Sequence record: PV660457
DNA from: Escherichia phage LF82-19
DNA: 52,748 bases
Direction: 5' to 3' (one strand)
In this document: piece by piece, positions 27,394 through 52,432 of the stretch
Position numbering within the stretch: the stretch's first letter is position 1
Layout: every line of letters starts with the position of its first letter
Position numbers and translations under genes: made by a program
The notes under the pieces: generated by a model
What the model saw: only the letters and a program-made list of their open reading frames with translations
Database searches by the model: none
What the model was told of the DNA's origin: nothing

Positions 27394-29463
27394 ATGAAAA
27401 TCAAGAGCATCAAGAAGCAGATTGAGGAGTTAGGCGAGGATAAGATCGCAGAGCTTCAAAAGAAATTCACTTTTGGTGACATTGTTCCTTATGCGTATCA
27501 GTGCGTCATGTACGACGAGATCGCAAAGCGCATTTCCGCATACAAACACCCATTCTTTGTTAAGGCTTCCGTGTCGGCTGGCAAAACAGTTGGGTTTGCC
27601 ATGGTGGCGGCGCGGTGCAGGGAAATGACTAGCGCAAAGTTTCCAAAGGGTTTATCAATGGCAATCCTCGCTCGCCAGGGTGAGATCGTATCTCAGGATA
27701 GCCAGGAGCTAACAAACTTCGGCGTGCCGAATAGCGTTTACTGCGCCGGGCTTGGTACTAAATCTGCATACTTCCCGATCGTCGTTGGCTCTGAGGGTTC
27801 AGTTGCAAACGGGCTTTTCAAGGCTCTCGGAGACTTCGCGCCAATGGTTGTCGGCATCGACGAATGTCACCAGGTGGATTGGGAAGACCTTGCAGACTCG
27901 ATCGAGAAGAACGAAAGCTATGAGGAAATGAGCAGACCAAAGGATGAGGCTTACATGATCAATGGCGAAGTAGTCGATCGCGGGTTGAAGATATCAAGCC
28001 TCATGGAAACCCTGGGAACAGTTGCACCAGGTGCCGGGCGCTCTCAGTACACGATAATCATTCGTGAGTTGCAGCGTCGATGCCTGGAAGTTCACGGAAA
28101 GGAACTACGCATATTCGGCATGACTGGTTCAGAGTTTCGCGGCACAACTCCGATCCTTGTTGAGAATATGAAACTCAAAGGCTTCTGGCGCGAGCAGGTA
28201 ACGAACATTGATACGAACTACCTCATTGAGTTTGGCTCGGTTGTTCCAACCGTCTTCGGCTCAACTGGCGGGTTAGGCTACGATCTGGAAGAGTTCAAAG
28301 CGTCAAGCGAAGATGGAACAAAAGACTTTGACGCGAAAGTAATGAAGAAGATGGAGGAGAAGATCCACAAGGATGCTTCCATGACGGCAAGAATTATGGC
28401 GGCGGTTGTGGAGGAAGCGAAGAAGCGAAACGGCGTTCTAATTACTTGCTCAGGGCAACGACACTGTAAAGAGGCGGCTAGTTACCTGCCTGAAGGCTCA
28501 ACGTATGCGATCATTACTGAGAAGACCGGAACGAAACAGCGCCAGCAAATCCTTGATGATGCAAACCAGGGAAAGATAAAGTACATCTTCCAGGTTGTGG
28601 CATTGACGACTGGCGTTAACGTGCCGTTTTGGGATTTCTCCGTGATACTCCGTAAGATTGGCTCTCTCACATTGCTGATACAGTTGCTTGGGCGCGGAAT
28701 GCGACTTTTAAAGGCGTGGCAAATCGCAATGGGGATGGTGAAGACAGATCACCTTGTTTGGGATTTTGCCGGAACTATGGACGAATTAGGCCAACTTTAC
28801 TTTGACCCGATTCTTGAGGAAGCTCAGTATCAACGCCGTTTCGACTCGAAGAAGGAGCCTAAAAAATGCCCTATTTGCGGTCATGAAAACAGTTTCTTTG
28901 CTCGTCGCTGTATCAGTCGGGATTTGAACGGAAACAGATGTGAGTATTTCTGGAAGTCGAGAACGTGCGAGGATCAGGTTGACGATCGAACCGGGAAAGT
29001 TATTGTGAAGGGTTGCGGTGTTCAAAATGATGTTGTAGCTCGAATCTGTAGGGGTTGTGATGCTAGCCTAACAGATCCCAACGCCAACTTAACCGGGAAG
29101 GCGTACACAAAAAACGACTGGTGCCAGGTTCTCAGCTTTGAGGTTGGGCTTACCAAAAACCAGACCGGGATCATTTATAAATATCGCTTGCGTGATATGC
29201 TCGGAGAGGAGTTTAACGCATACGAGAAGTTTTTCCCTGAGTCTCAGGCTCAGGTATGCCACACGATATGGAAAACAAAAGGCGTGCTTCCACACGTTCA
29301 CGATTCGAAAGTGGCAAAGCTTATGGCAGCATACAGGAGCGCGCGCCTGATCTTACAAAACGCGCACCACATCGCGCACCCGGTACGGGTTACGCATCGC
29401 AAAAACGCAAAGGGCGAAGATATCATTTCGCGCAAGGACTTCGGTCTTAATGAGGGCTTATGA
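27394..29463 (+). CDS. DExH-box SF2 helicase with C-terminal Cys-rich zinc-ribbon cluster
   Basis: Walker A SVSAGKT, DECH box, helicase C-terminal region, then CPICGH ... C ... C ... GCG ... CRGC cluster. Confidence 0.75.
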   Translation: MKIKSIKKQIEELGEDKIAELQKKFTFGDIVPYAYQCVMYDEIAKRISAYKHPFFVKASVSAGKTVGFAMVAARCREMTSAKFPKGLSMAILARQGEIVSQDSQELTNFGVPNSVYCAGLGTKSAYFPIVVGSEGSVANGLFKALGDFAPMVVGIDECHQVDWEDLADSIEKNESYEEMSRPKDEAYMINGEVVDRGLKISSLMETLGTVAPGAGRSQYTIIIRELQRRCLEVHGKELRIFGMTGSEFRGTTPILVENMKLKGFWREQVTNIDTNYLIEFGSVVPTVFGSTGGLGYDLEEFKASSEDGTKDFDAKVMKKMEEKIHKDASMTARIMAAVVEEAKKRNGVLITCSGQRHCKEAASYLPEGSTYAIITEKTGTKQRQQILDDANQGKIKYIFQVVALTTGVNVPFWDFSVILRKIGSLTLLIQLLGRGMRLLKAWQIAMGMVKTDHLVWDFAGTMDELGQLYFDPILEEAQYQRRFDSKKEPKKCPICGHENSFFARRCISRDLNGNRCEYFWKSRTCEDQVDDRTGKVIVKGCGVQNDVVARICRGCDASLTDPNANLTGKAYTKNDWCQVLSFEVGLTKNQTGIIYKYRLRDMLGEEFNAYEKFFPESQAQVCHTIWKTKGVLPHVHDSKVAKLMAAYRSARLILQNAHHIAHPVRVTHRKNAKGEDIISRKDFGLNEGL

Positions 29464-29879
29464 TTACTGACAAGGGCGATTATCTTGAATATTACACCCC
29501 TGATAAGGGGTGTACCCTGAAGGAAGAGACTCACCAGGTTAACGGCGTTTCGTGGCTAAAGTACCACTACCCAAACCTGATGTTTTGGCACACGGTCAAC
29601 GAGGGGCAGAAGCACATAAACACAGCCCTAAAAGATGAGCAAGCCGGGCTTAAGAAAGGTGTCAGCGACTTCGTATTTCTGATTGGTCATTTCGATCGGA
29701 AATATTGCTTTGGGGCTATTGAGCTGAAGCGCACCAACAAGAGCGGAAAGTACAAGGCATCACCAGTCAGTAAGGAGCAGAAAGCTTTCCTTCTCGGTGT
29801 GCGTGAACGTGGGGGGTTCGCGGCTGTGGCTTACGGATTCGAGGAGTTGAAGAAAGCCGTTGAGGACATGATGAAATAG
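29460..29879 (+). CDS. VRR-NUC-like nuclease
   Basis: 139 aa with D ... SDFVFL ... IELK PD-(D/E)xK-like motif; overlaps helicase stop. Confidence 0.55.
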   Translation: MITDKGDYLEYYTPDKGCTLKEETHQVNGVSWLKYHYPNLMFWHTVNEGQKHINTALKDEQAGLKKGVSDFVFLIGHFDRKYCFGAIELKRTNKSGKYKASPVSKEQKAFLLGVRERGGFAAVAYGFEELKKAVEDMMK

Positions 29880-29949: not shown

Positions 29950-30663
29950 ATGATTGACGAGAACGATAAAGACACAATGACGTTTGAAGAAATGGAGCAC
30001 GGCTTGTATTCAACTCGCGCACTGGTTGCCGGGTGCCACTACCAGCCAGTGAAGCCGGAAACGTACTATCGCGTTTCAGGGCATCGTTACGTTGGCAGCA
30101 AAACGCCTGACGTTGTGCGTGACTTGTGGGCAACCGATCGCGAATTGATTTCGTGGATGGAAGAGCGTTACGGAAAGTATGATATCGACGCAGCGGCAAG
30201 CGCGAATAATGCCGTGTGCGAAAAGTTCTACGACGAGCAACGTAACTGCCTGAAAATCTGGTGGGGAAAGAATAAGCACATCTGGCTTAACCCTCCGTAC
30301 TCACATCCTGATCCATTCGTGAAGAAGGCCATTGAGCAGATGGAGCATGACAACCAGATTGATATGCTTCTTCCTGGCGACAACTCAACGGCATGGTTTG
30401 CAGAGGCGCGCAAAAACGCTGCTGAGATCATCTGGATTGAGGCTGAGATCACAGAGATTGACCAGCAGGAATATTGCCGAACCGGGCGACTCGCTTTTAT
30501 TTCCGGCCTAACCGGAAAGCCAGTTGACGGCAACAACAAAGGGAGTGTGATTTTCATCATGCGCAAACTGAAAGAGGGTGAGACGCAACAAACACACTAT
30601 GTGAGCGTTTCTGAGATCTGCCCAGGCGTAAGCCGCAAGAAACCACGTAAACGGAGCGTTTAA
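29950..30663 (+). CDS. dam: DNA N6-adenine methyltransferase (phage Dam-type)
   Basis: NPPYS catalytic motif; 237 aa. Confidence 0.75.
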   Translation: MIDENDKDTMTFEEMEHGLYSTRALVAGCHYQPVKPETYYRVSGHRYVGSKTPDVVRDLWATDRELISWMEERYGKYDIDAAASANNAVCEKFYDEQRNCLKIWWGKNKHIWLNPPYSHPDPFVKKAIEQMEHDNQIDMLLPGDNSTAWFAEARKNAAEIIWIEAEITEIDQQEYCRTGRLAFISGLTGKPVDGNNKGSVIFIMRKLKEGETQQTHYVSVSEICPGVSRKKPRKRSV

Positions 30664-35024: not shown

Positions 35025-36611
35025 TTACCCCAGCAAGCGTGGATTAACGTAAATCTTATCACCGATCAGGCAAGTGTAATTCTTCTCGTCAAGCATCGGC
35101 AGCAAGTGATCTTTGATTCGTGTCATTGTTCCGGCCTGGCCTTCGAATGGTCGAACCTTGCGCGCGGCCTCGTAAAGCGCCCGAAGACCAACAACGCCCT
35201 TCCCCTGCTTTCCGCTCTTGATCAGCAAGTCAATAAGCTTGTTCATTTCTGCTGAATCGCCAGCGTGCCCGGCAGACGACGCGGAAGAAAGATAGGTCTT
35301 GCTCAGCTCGTTAAACATGATCACGGCCTCCTGCATTGTGTCAAGCTCAATCTCTCGACTCTTCGGCGCATTGCTTCCGTTTGGTGAGAACCAGTTACGG
35401 ATCACATGCAGAACCGACGCGATACGAATCGCCTGTTTATCGAACTTGCCCAGCGCACCGCGTAACATGGTGTGCGAGTATTTCCCGCCGTCTGCCAAGT
35501 GTGGCTCCATCGCCTGGCGTGCGTTGTTAAGGTACTTCATCGCGCTCTTGCTCACCGTGAGCTTAACGTCAACCTCACTCATGATGGCGTGTATCAGCTT
35601 GAAGTAATCAGCTTTCAGGCCGCCGTCAATAGGCTCGTAAGTTGACTCGCCATTGTCATTCACGAAAACACGCTCACCAAGGAATGACTTCTCACGAACC
35701 AGCAAGAAACGCTCAGAAACACCGATACCGCGCGCACCTGCATTCATGATCGCGTTGATTGTCTCGTCCTGCGCGATAACCGAAATACAACCCATAGCCA
35801 CGAATGACATGTTGTTATCAGCGTTCGCACGAGCGATAGACACGTTCCCTGCATCCCATGCTTTCAGCACAAGCTCGCTGTTTGTCTTCTTCGAACCGTC
35901 ACCATACGTCATGCCCAACAGGCTGTTAACGGATGTCGCTTCGTCCGAGATCACAGCGAAGTTGCCTTGACGGTTGTTAATGCGTGCCAAGCCTTCAGGC
36001 GTGGTATCTGAAACAGGGAAAACGATATCGCAAAGGCGCTCAAGCTTCTCTTCAAGATCCTCTTTCTCCTCAAACAGCGAGGCCATTTCAGATGGCGCTT
36101 TCTCCTGTTTCATTTCCTTCGCCAGCGCAGACAGTTTGGCGAGAATCTTTTTACGCTCACGCTTACGAGCCTCGTTGAGTCGCTCAGTCTCCGCGATCAT
36201 TGGCGCGATGGATAGCGAGTTGATTGCGGATTTCCCCGTTGATGGTGGCTGACTGGTTACAACGTAGAGCGCAGTTGGTTGTTGCGTTCCGTGATAGTCA
36301 ACCGTGAACCTACCCAGCATGGCGGCAGACACGCAACCTACAAAGTGCATATAGGCTGAAGACTCAGGGAATTGAACCGATCTCGCGGCGTTGCGTGAGA
36401 GCTTGCCGACCACATCACTATCGTTGCCCAGGGAAATAACAGGATATTTATCATTACCTGAATCAATCTCTACCGGAGCCTTCCAGAAGGATTGGGATTG
36501 ACGATATCCATTCGCATTTATGGCAACGCGGAGCGGCGGCAACCCTTCGGCCTTTGCAACCTCGATCACTTGTTCCGGCGAAAGTTTATCATCATTGAAA
36601 ATATCGAACAT
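35025..36611 (-). CDS. P-loop NTPase, putative replication helicase/initiator
   Basis: Walker A-like PPSTGKS; 528 aa; in replication gene neighbourhood. Confidence 0.45.
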   Translation of the reverse strand: MFDIFNDDKLSPEQVIEVAKAEGLPPLRVAINANGYRQSQSFWKAPVEIDSGNDKYPVISLGNDSDVVGKLSRNAARSVQFPESSAYMHFVGCVSAAMLGRFTVDYHGTQQPTALYVVTSQPPSTGKSAINSLSIAPMIAETERLNEARKRERKKILAKLSALAKEMKQEKAPSEMASLFEEKEDLEEKLERLCDIVFPVSDTTPEGLARINNRQGNFAVISDEATSVNSLLGMTYGDGSKKTNSELVLKAWDAGNVSIARANADNNMSFVAMGCISVIAQDETINAIMNAGARGIGVSERFLLVREKSFLGERVFVNDNGESTYEPIDGGLKADYFKLIHAIMSEVDVKLTVSKSAMKYLNNARQAMEPHLADGGKYSHTMLRGALGKFDKQAIRIASVLHVIRNWFSPNGSNAPKSREIELDTMQEAVIMFNELSKTYLSSASSAGHAGDSAEMNKLIDLLIKSGKQGKGVVGLRALYEAARKVRPFEGQAGTMTRIKDHLLPMLDEKNYTCLIGDKIYVNPRLLG

Positions 36612-36638
36612 GTTAAAAACTCCTTGTTTGGTTGCTCA

Positions 36639-36682
36639 ATGATAGAGCAACCAATGATAGTGCGTTTTGGCAAAAAGTGCTA
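36639..36682 (-). promoter_or_regulatory. palindrome TAGCA-N5-TGCCA plus long hairpin with TATCAT
   Basis: 23-nt gap; 10-bp stem TTGGTTGCTC/GAGCAACCAA with TATCAT in loop. Confidence 0.45.
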
Positions 36683-36686
36683 TTGG

Positions 36687-37103
36687 TTATAAATATTTTG
36701 CTTCAAATGTTGTGCCGTCTGCGATCGAAAATCCAACCTCCTCGCGGTAAAGGTTCCACGGTGAGCCGTCCTCGTCAAAGATAAGCCCGGCAACCCCACC
36801 AAGCGCCCTGCCTGAATCCACCTGGTAGCGCTTGCCAACCTTAAAGGATTTCTTCATTGGGTTCTTGTGATCCAGCGTCATGCACTTCAGGGTTTTAGTT
36901 TTCATCTCAACGAATGTTGCAGCAACGACGCCATCCGATGAAACGAAAATATCACCGCTTACGCCAACCGAAAGCACGATCTTAGCCTTGCCCTTGCCGA
37001 TTGAAATGTTGCCTTCATCGTCAACTTTCGCCTTATACATGTGGTTAGCGTTGAAGGTTTTAGTTAATGACATGGTGCATTTGATCTTGATTGACTTTGA
37101 CAT
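36687..37103 (-). CDS. hypothetical protein (possible MKVKC-family relative)
   Basis: start MSKSIKIKCT with RBS GAGGAA; track ORF to 37166 runs through promoter. Confidence 0.4.
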   Translation of the reverse strand: MSKSIKIKCTMSLTKTFNANHMYKAKVDDEGNISIGKGKAKIVLSVGVSGDIFVSSDGVVAATFVEMKTKTLKCMTLDHKNPMKKSFKVGKRYQVDSGRALGGVAGLIFDEDGSPWNLYREEVGFSIADGTTFEAKYL

Positions 37104-37132: not shown

Positions 37133-37175
37133 ATAATAACAAAACCCGCCGAAGCGGGTTTAACAAAAAGTGCTA
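37133..37175 (-). promoter_or_regulatory. palindrome plus terminator-like hairpin plus -10 TATTAT
   Basis: on minus: TAGCACTTTTTGTTA-AACCCGCTTCGGCGGGTTTTG-TTATTAT; same 40-nt element as 48965-49007. Confidence 0.5.
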
Positions 37176-37865
37176 TTTGTAACGGTTGTACTGGAAGACG
37201 GCGCGAGCGAATCCGCGCGGAGTTAGGGAGCGGAGTTGCTTAGTCTTCGCAGACTTTCCGCCGAGGAACTTCCAGCCCCAAAAGAAATGCAAGCCTTCCT
37301 CTTTTGGTAATGGTGCCTTCTCTGGCTCGCGGAAACCGTTGCCATGCCAGATGCAAGTTTTTTTCGTGTAGCCGTCTCGCAGTGGCATTTTGGGGTGCCA
37401 GGAGCCTTCACGCGCATCGACGTATTGCCCGAAGTCACGAGGATGGAAATAGAATTTAGGCTTGCCCAGGTTTTCCGGCTTTGACATTGCCCCTACCGGG
37501 TTTTCAATCATCCACGGGATCTGGTAGCGTTCGCCAATCTCAATGACAACCTTTGCACACTCAAGCGCATATTTCATTTCGGCGTCGTCTCTCTCGTGCT
37601 GCGCGCCAGATTGGGCAAACAGAGTGCAATCCGGGAAGCCAAAAACGATATCAGGCTTGGGCAACCCCAGGATCTCAGCCTTTGTGATGAAATCCTTATC
37701 AATCCACGTATTCACATATCGGATATTTGGGTGATTCATCTTCACGGCGTACTCGCCATGATTGCCGGAGTCAGCGTTGAAGCATATCACCTGACAACCA
37801 ACCTCAGCCCAAGGCAATCCCATAATGCCGGAGCCGTCAAACAGCGACCATACAACACGCTTCAT
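37173..37865 (-). CDS. C5-cytosine methyltransferase-like protein (short)
   Basis: motif I LFDGSG, motif IV FPDCTLF (PC), motif VI ENP (ENV-like); only 230 aa, no obvious target-recognition domain. Confidence 0.55.
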   Translation of the reverse strand: MKRVVWSLFDGSGIMGLPWAEVGCQVICFNADSGNHGEYAVKMNHPNIRYVNTWIDKDFITKAEILGLPKPDIVFGFPDCTLFAQSGAQHERDDAEMKYALECAKVVIEIGERYQIPWMIENPVGAMSKPENLGKPKFYFHPRDFGQYVDAREGSWHPKMPLRDGYTKKTCIWHGNGFREPEKAPLPKEEGLHFFWGWKFLGGKSAKTKQLRSLTPRGFARAVFQYNRYK

Positions 37866-38083
37866 TCTGCCACCTCTTCAAATTTAGCCACGCCCAGGAT
37901 TACCCATCCTTTATGGTGCATAGTAACCGCTTGCCACTCGAATGAGCCGTTGCGGCGCTTCTCATCGCCAGTGATCACAGCATCACCGCCAACCTTCACG
38001 GCATCGTAGATTTTACCTTTCGTGAAGTGTGGCTTTTGCTTCTTATCGGTTGGCGAAACAGCGCCAGTACATTTCAGTTTCAT
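37862..38083 (-). CDS. small protein, MKLKC family member
   Basis: MKLKCTG ... FTKGKIY N-terminal motif. Confidence 0.45.
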   Translation of the reverse strand: MKLKCTGAVSPTDKKQKPHFTKGKIYDAVKVGGDAVITGDEKRRNGSFEWQAVTMHHKGWVILGVAKFEEVAE

Positions 38084-47555: not shown

Positions 47556-47723
47556 ATGTTCGAAGAAAAGAAACACAGGCCGGAACAAGCTTACTCAAGG
47601 GTATCACGCACCGTTAAAGAGCGTAGGCGCTGGGTTAAGTATTTCATGAATCAAGGCCACACCAGATCGGTTGCGATTGGCCTGGCTAAGTGGGCAACAA
47701 ACAACTACAACGGGAAAAACTGA
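47556..47723 (+). CDS. small basic protein (55 aa)
   Basis: MFEEKKHR ... ; stop overlaps next ATG (TGATG); not listed separately in track. Confidence 0.35.
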   Translation: MFEEKKHRPEQAYSRVSRTVKERRRWVKYFMNQGHTRSVAIGLAKWATNNYNGKN

Positions 47724-48355
47724 TGAACTTTCAAATGTACACTATGATCAAGCATCACTTACTTACTCATCCAGATCAGCCAGTCTACATCTTCGACTAT
47801 GACGGCACGCTTTCGGATGGCTCTCACCGACTGGACAAGTTGCCAACAAAAGATTTGCACCTCACCGAAAGCTGGGAAGAGTTCAATCGCCTTGCTTCAT
47901 TCGATGAGCCGATCGAAACAACCATTCAGGTGATGAATTCACTTTATAAGGCTGGCGCTTTCGTTATCGTGTTAACCGGGCGCGCCGATAGCGTTGTTGA
48001 AGAGTCAACACAATGGCTGCATGATGCTGGGGCGAAATATACAGTGATGGTGATGCGTGGGCGTGACGACAATCGCAAGGACACGATCATCAAGGAGGAA
48101 TTCTTGCGCTACATCGGACTTGAGCGAATTACAGCGGCGTGGGATGATAGCCCAAAAGTGATCGAGCATTTCCGATCGCTGGGCATCACAACCTACCAGG
48201 TTTGTGATTATGGCGATAAGACTCACGCGCATCTACAGTCACACGGCGTGAAAGATGCTGGCGGAGAGTGTGAGCATATTTGGGAGCGTCACAGTATTGG
48301 TGACGATTATTATGAATGCTGTGTTTCATGCGGCAGATCAAGAGGCATTAAGTAA
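47723..48355 (+). CDS. HAD-family phosphatase (polynucleotide 3'-phosphatase-like)
   Basis: FDYDGTL (DxDGT) motif I near N-terminus; start at 47723 not 47690. Confidence 0.6.
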   Translation: MNFQMYTMIKHHLLTHPDQPVYIFDYDGTLSDGSHRLDKLPTKDLHLTESWEEFNRLASFDEPIETTIQVMNSLYKAGAFVIVLTGRADSVVEESTQWLHDAGAKYTVMVMRGRDDNRKDTIIKEEFLRYIGLERITAAWDDSPKVIEHFRSLGITTYQVCDYGDKTHAHLQSHGVKDAGGECEHIWERHSIGDDYYECCVSCGRSRGIK

Positions 48356-48963
48356 TGGCAACTATCATCATTCTGAATGCGCCGCCGCGCGCCGGGAAAG
48401 ACACGATCGCGAAAATCATCGACGAGCAATACGGCTTGCCAGTTGTGAGCTTCAAAACTCCGATGTTCAACATTGCTCGCGGCATCTTGGGCGAAGCGGA
48501 TTTTAAAGAGTTCATGGCGGTTTACGAAACAGACCGCAAGGACACACAGCCGTTAAGTATTCTGCATGGCAGCACTTGCCGCGAGTTTATGATCTGGATT
48601 AGCGAATCCGTGATTAAGCCTCATTTCGGCAAGAAGCATTTCGGCTGGCTTATGGCTGATTTGCTCAGCGAAATGGAGGATGATGTTGATCTCACAATTT
48701 GCAGCGATGGCGGGTTCCCGGATGAGGTAGAGGCGTTGATTGACTTCGGGCACCGTGTCAAGCTGGTTCGTATGCACCGTGAAGGCTTCGACTTCTCGAA
48801 AGATAGCCGTGACTACATCTACCTTTCCGAAGAGTACAAGAGCAAGCCTGGTGTTGTTGAGTTCGATCTGACATTGCAGGACGGTTGCCCTAATCTGGCT
48901 GCTGAGACTATCGCGTCATTGTTCATTGCCCATCATAAACCAGATAACGAGATCCCTTGGTAA
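48355..48963 (+). CDS. P-loop kinase (polynucleotide or nucleotide kinase-like)
   Basis: Walker A-like NAPPRAGKDT; ATGA-coupled to the phosphatase. Confidence 0.55.
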   Translation: MATIIILNAPPRAGKDTIAKIIDEQYGLPVVSFKTPMFNIARGILGEADFKEFMAVYETDRKDTQPLSILHGSTCREFMIWISESVIKPHFGKKHFGWLMADLLSEMEDDVDLTICSDGGFPDEVEALIDFGHRVKLVRMHREGFDFSKDSRDYIYLSEEYKSKPGVVEFDLTLQDGCPNLAAETIASLFIAHHKPDNEIPW

Positions 48964-52150: not shown

Positions 52151-52238
52151 GGAAGGTTGGCAGAGTGGACGATCGCGCACGGTTGCTAACCGTCAAGCCG
52201 GAAACGGCTCAAGGGTTCGAATCCCTTACCTTCCACCA
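52151..52238 (+). tRNA. tRNA-Ser (anticodon GCU), class II with long variable arm
   Basis: acceptor GGAAGGT/ACCTTCC, anticodon loop TTGCTAA, variable stem GCCG-gaaa-CGGC, T-arm AAGGG-TTCGAAT-CCCTT, encoded ACCA end; D-stem and anticodon stem slightly imperfect. Confidence 0.6.
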
Positions 52239-52252
52239 ATCAAAGAGGTTTG

Positions 52253-52432
52253 CATGTTTGATGTTAAACTCACTATCTTGTTAATGGGGCGCTCATGCGC
52301 ATCATGCAAGCAACACTTCGAGTGCACCGTTGAGGCGGAAACATCCGAAGATGCCGTGTCAAAGGCAAAGGCAATGGCGGGAGCCGATCCCACTACTCAC
52401 AAGTTTTTAGTTAACTACGTAAGGAAAAAGTA
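52253..52432 (+). CDS. small Cys-containing protein (59 aa)
   Basis: RBS AAGAGG; CASCKQHFEC segment; not in ORF track. Confidence 0.35.

Follow-up and report, generated by a model that had tools for sequence, protein, structure and literature searches.

The 52,748-nucleotide stretch of Escherichia phage LF82-19 DNA (sequence record PV660457), which we call the window, carries on its minus strand, at positions 37173..37865, a gene for a 230-residue protein of the phrog_757 family of compact C5-cytosine DNA methyltransferases (MTases). We consider it highly probable that the gene encodes an active, S-adenosylmethionine (SAM)-dependent DNA cytosine-C5 MTase belonging to a single-domain family of about 25 kDa, and we put the chance that its site is CCWGG at about even. 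From the motifs, the fold, the family membership, the homology to a characterised enzyme and the restriction-site statistics of the genome, we infer the activity of the protein, its target sequence and a role in anti-restriction. The initial annotation, made from the sequence alone, had described this open reading frame (ORF) without giving its strand, as a short C5-MTase-like protein with a motif I, a PC-type motif and an ENV-like motif (ENP). The ORF listing confirms the frame, with an ATG start, and all three motifs are present and conserved, in the exact forms FDGSG, P-x-C and ENP(V).

Motif I, F9-D10-G11-S12-G13 (37827..37841; this and all other elements of the gene lie on the minus strand), is the predicted SAM-binding loop following strand β1, which spans residues 4-8 in the AlphaFold2 model. 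It pairs with 'SLFSGAGG' of M.HaeIII in the phmmer alignment and with 'SLFDG' of DNMT3A in the hhalign alignment, and D10, G11 and S12 are invariant in the family, with conservation of 90% or more at F9 and G13. Motif IV, F77-P78-D79-C80-T81 (37623..37637, codons checked in the sequence), contains the predicted catalytic cysteine C80; F77, P78 and C80 are invariant, and phmmer aligns this segment with 'GPPC' of M.HaeIII. Motif VI, E121-N122-P123-V124-G125 (37491..37505), is a variant of the 'ENV' motif in which V is replaced by P. It pairs with ENV of M.HaeIII and ENVV of DNMT3A, with N122, P123 and V124 invariant and E121 at least 90% conserved. The phmmer match to M.HaeIII, found among the PDB sequences, covers residues 7-138 at E=0.0038.

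A fourth element, the motif-VIII-like strand Y166-T-K168-K169-T170-C-I-W173-H-G-N-G-F178 (37332..37370), ranks among the family's two best-conserved segments, with an entropy of 0.52 bits, and is placed by hhalign on 'HRARYFWGNLPG' of DNMT3A. The invariant positions of the 52-sequence alignment include D10, G11, S12, F77, P78, C80, N122, P123, V124, Y166, K168, T170 and W173 and, towards the C-terminus, W196, W198, G202, T208, K209, L211, R212, S213, T215, P216 and G218. The catalytic and SAM-binding motifs are also kept in a 121-sequence alignment whose members fall to about 31% identity. Judging by the 52-sequence alignment, the conservation of the motifs is far beyond chance.

The predicted structure agrees with this assignment. 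The AlphaFold2 model (mean predicted local distance difference test score, pLDDT, 91.4; predicted template modelling score, pTM, 0.89) is a single α/β domain with the strand order of the C5-MTase large domain, and it ends in three short helices at residues 196-200, 206-212 and 217-227. All of the top 40 Foldseek matches in the PDB are C5-MTases, mostly DNMT3A and DNMT3B at E ~3e-8, so that the model and the structure searches both identify a C5-MTase catalytic-domain fold. A profile built from diverse family members matches the DNMT3A catalytic domain in hhalign at E=3.9e-5 with 70% probability, sharing SLFDG, ENxV and a motif VIII strand that resembles (Y/I)(F/W)WGN. Against the M.HhaI family alignment the same profile gives a probability of only 2.8%, and hhalign with a less diverse query was likewise weak in both global and local modes; the homologue search with M.HhaI had returned only proteins at least 71% identical to it, too narrow a set for a useful profile. 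The DNMT3A and M.HhaI reference sequences were confirmed to be identical to the PDB chains. Searching the PDB sequences with a profile of close family members gave no relevant match.

The kinship with the DNMT3 enzymes is one of structure, and we found no evidence of direct ancestry between them and the phage protein. Their catalytic domains are about 285 residues long, with a target-recognition domain (TRD) loop, motif IX and motif X, are only 14-17% identical to the 230-residue protein and act as DNMT3L-assisted tetramers within large multidomain proteins. The structure searches also bear on the possibility that the substrate is RNA, as for DNMT2 and tRNA, or a host nucleic acid, with the enzyme serving host takeover rather than self-protection. 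We regard this as very unlikely, since DNA C5-MTases outrank DNMT2 in both structure searches, the homologue from phage K42 described below acts on DNA (that of a retron), synteny of the gene with replication genes (a helicase) is seen in unrelated phage groups, and it often accompanies a Dam DNA methylase.

The absence of an obvious TRD, suggested at the outset together with a deficit of about 100 residues, is borne out. The chains of M.HhaI (327 residues) and M.HaeIII (324-331 residues) are longer by about 100 residues, and their small domain with the TRD, 80-100 residues in PF00145 enzymes, is absent from the phage protein, whose AlphaFold2 model shows no separate small domain or TRD. Only some 40 residues (176-216) lie between the motif-VIII-like strand (residues 166-178) and a single C-terminal helix. 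Instead of a variable TRD between motifs VIII and IX, followed by IX and X, we find one IX- or X-like element. The position of the TRD and motifs IX and X is taken by a conserved C-terminal block, W196...V223 (WGWKFLGGKSAKTKQLRSLTPRGFARAV; 37197..37280), which bears the signature GGKSxxTKxxRSxTPRGFAxAV at residues 202-223, invariant or nearly so in the family. At residues 195-216 the entropy drops to 0.5-0.7 bits, its lowest level in the protein, and the variable stretches of the family lie elsewhere, at residues 57-72, 94-113 and 179-194. The segment at the TRD position is hypervariable in canonical enzymes such as M.HhaI and M.HaeIII and most conserved in the compact family, which argues for one DNA-recognition mode shared across the family rather than a module that diversifies specificity.

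How this block corresponds to the motifs of the larger enzymes can be read in three ways. By sequence, 'KTKQLRSLTPRGFARAVF' resembles motif IX (RxLTPRExAR) of M.HhaI and E. coli Dcm, with 'LRSLTPRGFAR' pairing with motif IX of both. The hhalign alignment of the diverse profile instead sets the block, at low confidence, on the TRD loop 'KFSKVRTITTR' of DNMT3A, and the third candidate is motif X of DNMT3A. As the protein starts directly at β1, its C-terminal helix would be expected to play the role of motif X. The C-terminal signature recurs in the tonijn/K42-type, VIK251, Skarpretter and phiKp14 proteins, and Arthrobacter phage Polka has only its C-terminal part, RSATPKGFARAVF.

The protein matches the phrog_757 profile ("DNA methyltransferase") at E=3.6e-77 over residues 1-228, and with this full-length match and a single-domain architecture it falls within the 200-260-residue family. 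A tblastn search found homologues in 1,489 deposited phage genomes, including those of Drexlerviridae, Klebsiella phages of about 48-51 kb, Vequintavirinae, 9NA and even Arthrobacter phages, many of them annotated as "Dcm-like C5 cytosine methyltransferase". In a large protein collection clustered at 90% identity, 1,971 clusters are homologous, and of the 120 listed nearly all are 215-250 residues long; a library clustered at 50% identity yields 836 at E<=1e-3, of which 266 reach E<=1e-10, with full-length matches of about 200-260 residues. The compact C5 family is therefore widespread in phages of enterobacteria and beyond, and since its short length is stable throughout, as the cluster lengths at both identity levels show, we excluded a truncated gene or an assembly artefact. 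The novelty implied by the initial annotation is not supported, as the protein typifies a phage family that is very large, has been annotated before and has been characterised in part.

Several members of the family adjoin Dam-type or other methylases or share a genome with them. In Arthrobacter phage Polka the compact MTase (gp46) directly follows a 467-residue 'DNA methylase' (gp45), and in Escherichia phage Skarpretter some 1.1 kb separate it from a Dam gene, and a distinct 78-residue ORF, likewise annotated as 'putative Dcm methylase', precedes it. A compact MTase domain (27% identity, template modelling score ~0.65) was also found in BFVD inside two very large proteins of uncultured phages, A0A6J5SE15 (1397 residues) and A0A6J5NPY6 (1126 residues). 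One of the two is named 'Helicase/UvrB, N-terminal', which echoes the MTase-helicase synteny of the 37173-37865 locus. Some distant members keep the catalytic cysteine, ENP and the C-terminal block and have a degenerate motif I (VIK251 'YDYTSVM', phiKp14 'FNRSRHM', Skarpretter 'FDRTGIM' and Polka 'CDITGHM'), and the phiKp14 and Skarpretter proteins have 'AEC' in place of P-x-C. Judged from these residues, SAM binding may differ in the branches concerned.

Experimental support for the activity of the family comes from K42, a KarlJaspers-like phage of the Drexlerviridae (Warwickvirus) (bioRxiv 10.1101/2023.08.16.553469), whose study, according to the citation in PMC12673091, later appeared as Wang et al., Cell Rep 2024;43:114857. 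Phages escaping the retron Ec86 (Eco1) were mutated in a 711-bp "dcm" gene, and expression of K42 Dcm was toxic to cells carrying the retron (bioRxiv 10.1101/2023.08.16.553469). In the same work, liquid chromatography coupled to mass spectrometry (LC-MS) detected high levels of 5-methylcytosine (5mC) in the multicopy single-stranded DNA (msDNA) of the retron with wild-type K42 Dcm, and low levels with a C82A/E128A/K175A/K176A mutant or an empty vector. Changing CCTGG in the msDNA stem to AATGG, ACTGG or CATGG abolished the defence against K42 (bioRxiv 10.1101/2023.08.16.553469). In msDNA of dcm+ MG1655 the 5mC level was low when the phage enzyme was not expressed (bioRxiv 10.1101/2023.08.16.553469); either the host Dcm is inefficient at the CCTGG of msDNA, or the target of the phage enzyme differs.

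We could connect the LF82-19 protein to this enzyme through the 236-residue (711-bp) protein of Warwickvirus tonijn, which has C82, E128, K175 and K176 exactly at the numbering of K42 Dcm and whose gene is 99.7% identical in DNA sequence to that of the BASEL phage FritzSarasin, annotated as "Dcm-like C5 cytosine methyltransferase". The 230-residue protein is 45% identical to the tonijn protein over its full length (E=1e-62), with all motif residues kept: C80 is the counterpart of C82, one of the four residues changed in the inactive quadruple mutant, E121 that of E128, and K168 and K169 those of K175 and K176. Full-length homology and the retained motifs together mean that the family of the 230-residue protein has an experimentally supported 5mC-forming member. 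Both proteins belong to phrog_757 and share the length class, the helicase neighbourhood and the motif set, including GGKSxxTKxxRSLTPRGFARAVF. They differ in that K42 and tonijn are T1-like phages and LF82-19 is 9NA-like, in an identity of only 45%, and in the region W196-L201.

The site composition of the genome bears on the role of the enzyme. Avoidance of palindromic restriction sites is extreme and selective: 20 of the 64 six-base palindromes are absent from the 52,748 nucleotides, compared with 2.7% of the non-palindromic hexamers. For GGNCC there is a single occurrence, where base composition predicts about 199 and trinucleotide-preserving simulations 111, and GGWCC, RCCGGY and GRGCYC do not occur at all. 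GATC, by contrast with these, is not avoided (348 observed, about 205 expected from base composition), and neither is CCWGG (126 observed; 101 expected from base composition, 129 from a maximal-order Markov model and 85 from simulation). The same is true of CCSGG (101 observed; 61 by the Markov model and 99 by base composition) and likewise of GCGC, CGCG and CCNGG. Among the hexamers containing GATC, GGATCC is absent, yet CGATCG (40), TGATCA (24) and AGATCT (17) are kept. That the Dam site and one of Dcm type persist while the genome otherwise purges palindromes is what self-methylation would predict. Since Dcm and Dam of the host could give the same pattern, the site statistics are supportive rather than decisive.

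The assignment as an active CCWGG-type MTase is weighed down by several observations, some touching the activity and others the site. On the side of activity, PF00145 scores 18.3 bits against a gathering threshold of 22 and covers only residues 6-109; P-D-C stands where PC is expected before and at the catalytic cysteine; and the arginines of motif VIII (QxRxR) are replaced by K and T, as the strand reads Y-T-K168-K169-T170-C-I-W, with K168 and T170 falling on R790 and R792 of DNMT3A in a low-confidence hhalign alignment. These three features, together with the degenerate motif I of distant relatives such as VIK251 and phiKp14, could point to a catalytically dead remnant kept for a structural or regulatory role. 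We regard such a remnant as extremely improbable, because the cysteine, ENP(V) and DGSG are invariant across the close family with its many clusters, and because an active homologue carries the same motif set and loses its activity when these residues are mutated. The low PF00145 score is shared by the family, as the model misses most compact members altogether: of nine others examined, eight gave no match and one fell below the threshold. NCBIfam has no match for the 230-residue protein. The residue just before the catalytic cysteine is D, S or P across the family, the K42-type enzyme having PPC.

On the side of the site, CCWGG for K42 Dcm rests on the 'Dcm' label and the msDNA mutagenesis and not on genome-wide mapping (bioRxiv 10.1101/2023.08.16.553469), and we found nothing relevant in the literature on the methylomes of these phages. 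The C-terminal block of our protein partly differs from that of K42 Dcm (FFWGWKFL versus NPGWAKT), so that the specificities of the two need not match. The retention of CCWGG could equally reflect protection by the host Dcm. Finally, BLASTP shows no significant similarity between the protein and E. coli Dcm (best E=1.4). Many database records call the phage protein 'Dcm', and a putative 5mC product and possibly the CCWGG site are shared with E. coli Dcm and M.EcoRII. The host enzyme is nonetheless a protein of 472 residues, 242 more than the phage protein, and has PF00145 at 260 bits and PF18284 (DNA_meth_N), whereas the phage protein has PF00145 below threshold and no DNA_meth_N domain; orthology with the host Dcm was rejected on these grounds. 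A Vsr-coupled system was rejected as well, as no vsr homologue is present in the window.

These points lend some weight to the possibility that the protein is an active 5mC MTase with a specificity other than that of Dcm, such as CCNGG, the outer C, a motif of 2-3 bp, or hairpin or single-stranded DNA, in which case its main role could differ from blocking EcoRII-type enzymes. The protein lacks a TRD and has an invariant region in its place; its nearest structural relatives, the DNMT3 enzymes, read only CpG; CCSGG is retained along with CCWGG; and msDNA has little 5mC in dcm+ MG1655 until the phage enzyme is present, the authors also noting toxicity of the phage Dcm itself (bioRxiv 10.1101/2023.08.16.553469). 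The loss of defence upon mutation of CCTGG in msDNA is, on the other hand, consistent with CCTGG as the target, and direct data for any other motif are lacking. On balance we hold a non-Dcm specificity to be possible, if on the unlikely side. A bolder and rather doubtful proposal is that the ~25-kDa enzymes are true minimal C5-MTases without a TRD. Their specificity could lie in a CC-type motif that is very short or relaxed, or they could favour DNA in hairpins or under replication, the DNA being read by loops of the catalytic domain and the invariant WGW...KTKQLRSLTPRGF block, perhaps in a DNMT3-like dimer. If this were true, the 'Dcm' label, and with it the assumption of CCWGG on which the model of retron triggering rests, would be wrong or incomplete.

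The initial annotation had left two alternatives, namely that the phage methylates its DNA with both Dam and a C5-MTase to evade restriction, or that the enzyme modifies cytosine differently or acts on another substrate. The former is better supported by the C5-MTase fold with its catalytic residues, by the 45%-identical homologue with 5mC detected by LC-MS and by the retention of GATC and CCWGG. The latter gained no support, for the characterised homologue acts on DNA, and its most specific form, transfer of a group other than methyl, for instance a carboxymethyl group from carboxy-S-adenosylmethionine (Cx-SAM) to give a hypermodified cytosine as by CmoX, appears very improbable. CmoX is defined by an SPPC motif and an Arg350 at the position of Asn304 in M.HhaI and usually has a phage cmoA and a ligase nearby; with 333 residues (PDB 8yf3) and CmoA/CmoY as partners (PMC12783734), it has features none of which was found for the 230-residue protein. 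The motif here is FPDC, without an SPPC/CmoX signature, the window contains no cmoA homologue (best tblastn E=2.2), and the other mid-sized ORFs tested have no MTase domain; a CmoX-type carboxymethyltransferase was rejected for these reasons. A homologue sharing the LRSLTPRGFARAVF block, moreover, produced 5mC. DNMT3A, a plain MTase, also has an arginine in motif X (GRSWSVP, verified in the sequence), at what we take to be the position equivalent to Asn304 of M.HhaI.

The catalysis of the putative C5-MTase would follow the standard mechanism, in which Cys80 would attack a flipped-out cytosine at C6, N3 would receive a proton from Glu121 of the ENP(V) motif, and the methyl group would then be moved from SAM held by the FDGSG loop. 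Because there is no separate TRD or small domain, DNA must be contacted by catalytic-domain loops and by the invariant block W196-V223 at the C-terminus, presumably as in the TRD-poor DNMT3 enzymes, and oligomerisation is possible. The enzyme, which shares its expression from the leftward replication/early module with the helicase, would most likely methylate replicating phage DNA alongside the phage Dam (GATC), with CCWGG or a closely related CC-containing site as the probable target. DNA methylated in this way would be shielded against methylation-sensitive restriction irrespective of the host's own methylation status. A known cost is that 5mC placed by such enzymes on the msDNA of retron Ec86 can trigger abortive infection.

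The Dam gene reported to reside in the same genome is indeed there, at 29950..30663 on the plus strand, and encodes a T1-type N6-adenine DNA MTase of 237 residues (PF05869, E=4.9e-59; phrog_111, E=5.4e-76). Directly upstream of it, at 27394-29879 (+), lie genes for a 689-residue SNF2/ResIII-type helicase (Helicase_C, ResIII) and a 139-residue VRR-NUC nuclease (PF08774, E=5.4e-9), and the helicase, the nuclease and Dam may form one module.

The C5-MTase gene itself stands in a leftward module of small early genes and a DNA helicase. Its start region (37862..37879, minus strand), as read from the sequence, has the ATG overlapping the TGA stop of an upstream 73-residue ORF (ATGA) and a Shine-Dalgarno-like GAGGTGG upstream, an arrangement from which translational coupling to the 73-residue ORF may be expected. 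Twelve nucleotides past the stop, at 37142..37161 on the minus strand, a consensus scan found a GC-rich hairpin with a T-rich tail that resembles a terminator by pattern match only. The downstream genes of the module (35025..37103, minus strand) encode a protein of unknown function (phrog_2684, 36687-37103) and a DNA helicase (phrog_2373, 35025-36611), and their order relative to the MTase, that is MTase, small ORF(s) and helicase, is the same in Warwickvirus tonijn.

The region is 100% identical in Escherichia phages LF82-10, -11, -12 and -40 (about 52.9 kb; host E. coli LF82), and the identical coding sequence of LF82-10, a 9NA-like siphovirus, is already annotated as 'DNA methyltransferase'. 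More distant relatives of the region include 9NA-like Klebsiella, Enterobacter and Salmonella phages. Elsewhere in the window, at 47723-48963 (+), a PNKP-type HAD phosphatase annotated as 'polynucleotide kinase' adjoins an annotated deoxynucleoside monophosphate kinase; the kinase is backed by a single weak AAA_17 match. A kinase of this type can go with modified-nucleotide metabolism, and no genes of such a pathway were seen in the window. A tRNA-Ser at about 52151-52238 (+) was transferred from the LF82-10 annotation (52298-52385 in that record, minus 147).

For this particular locus little is at stake, as the gene is already annotated and the family is common. Among the widespread classes of DNA C5-methyltransferases the compact enzymes are the smallest, and they could offer a minimal scaffold to engineer. 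For the phage, the compact C5 enzyme would be part of a strategy of dual self-methylation, by Dam and at cytosine C5, that complements the extensive avoidance of restriction sites. It would at the same time be a liability, as retron Ec86 senses its product.

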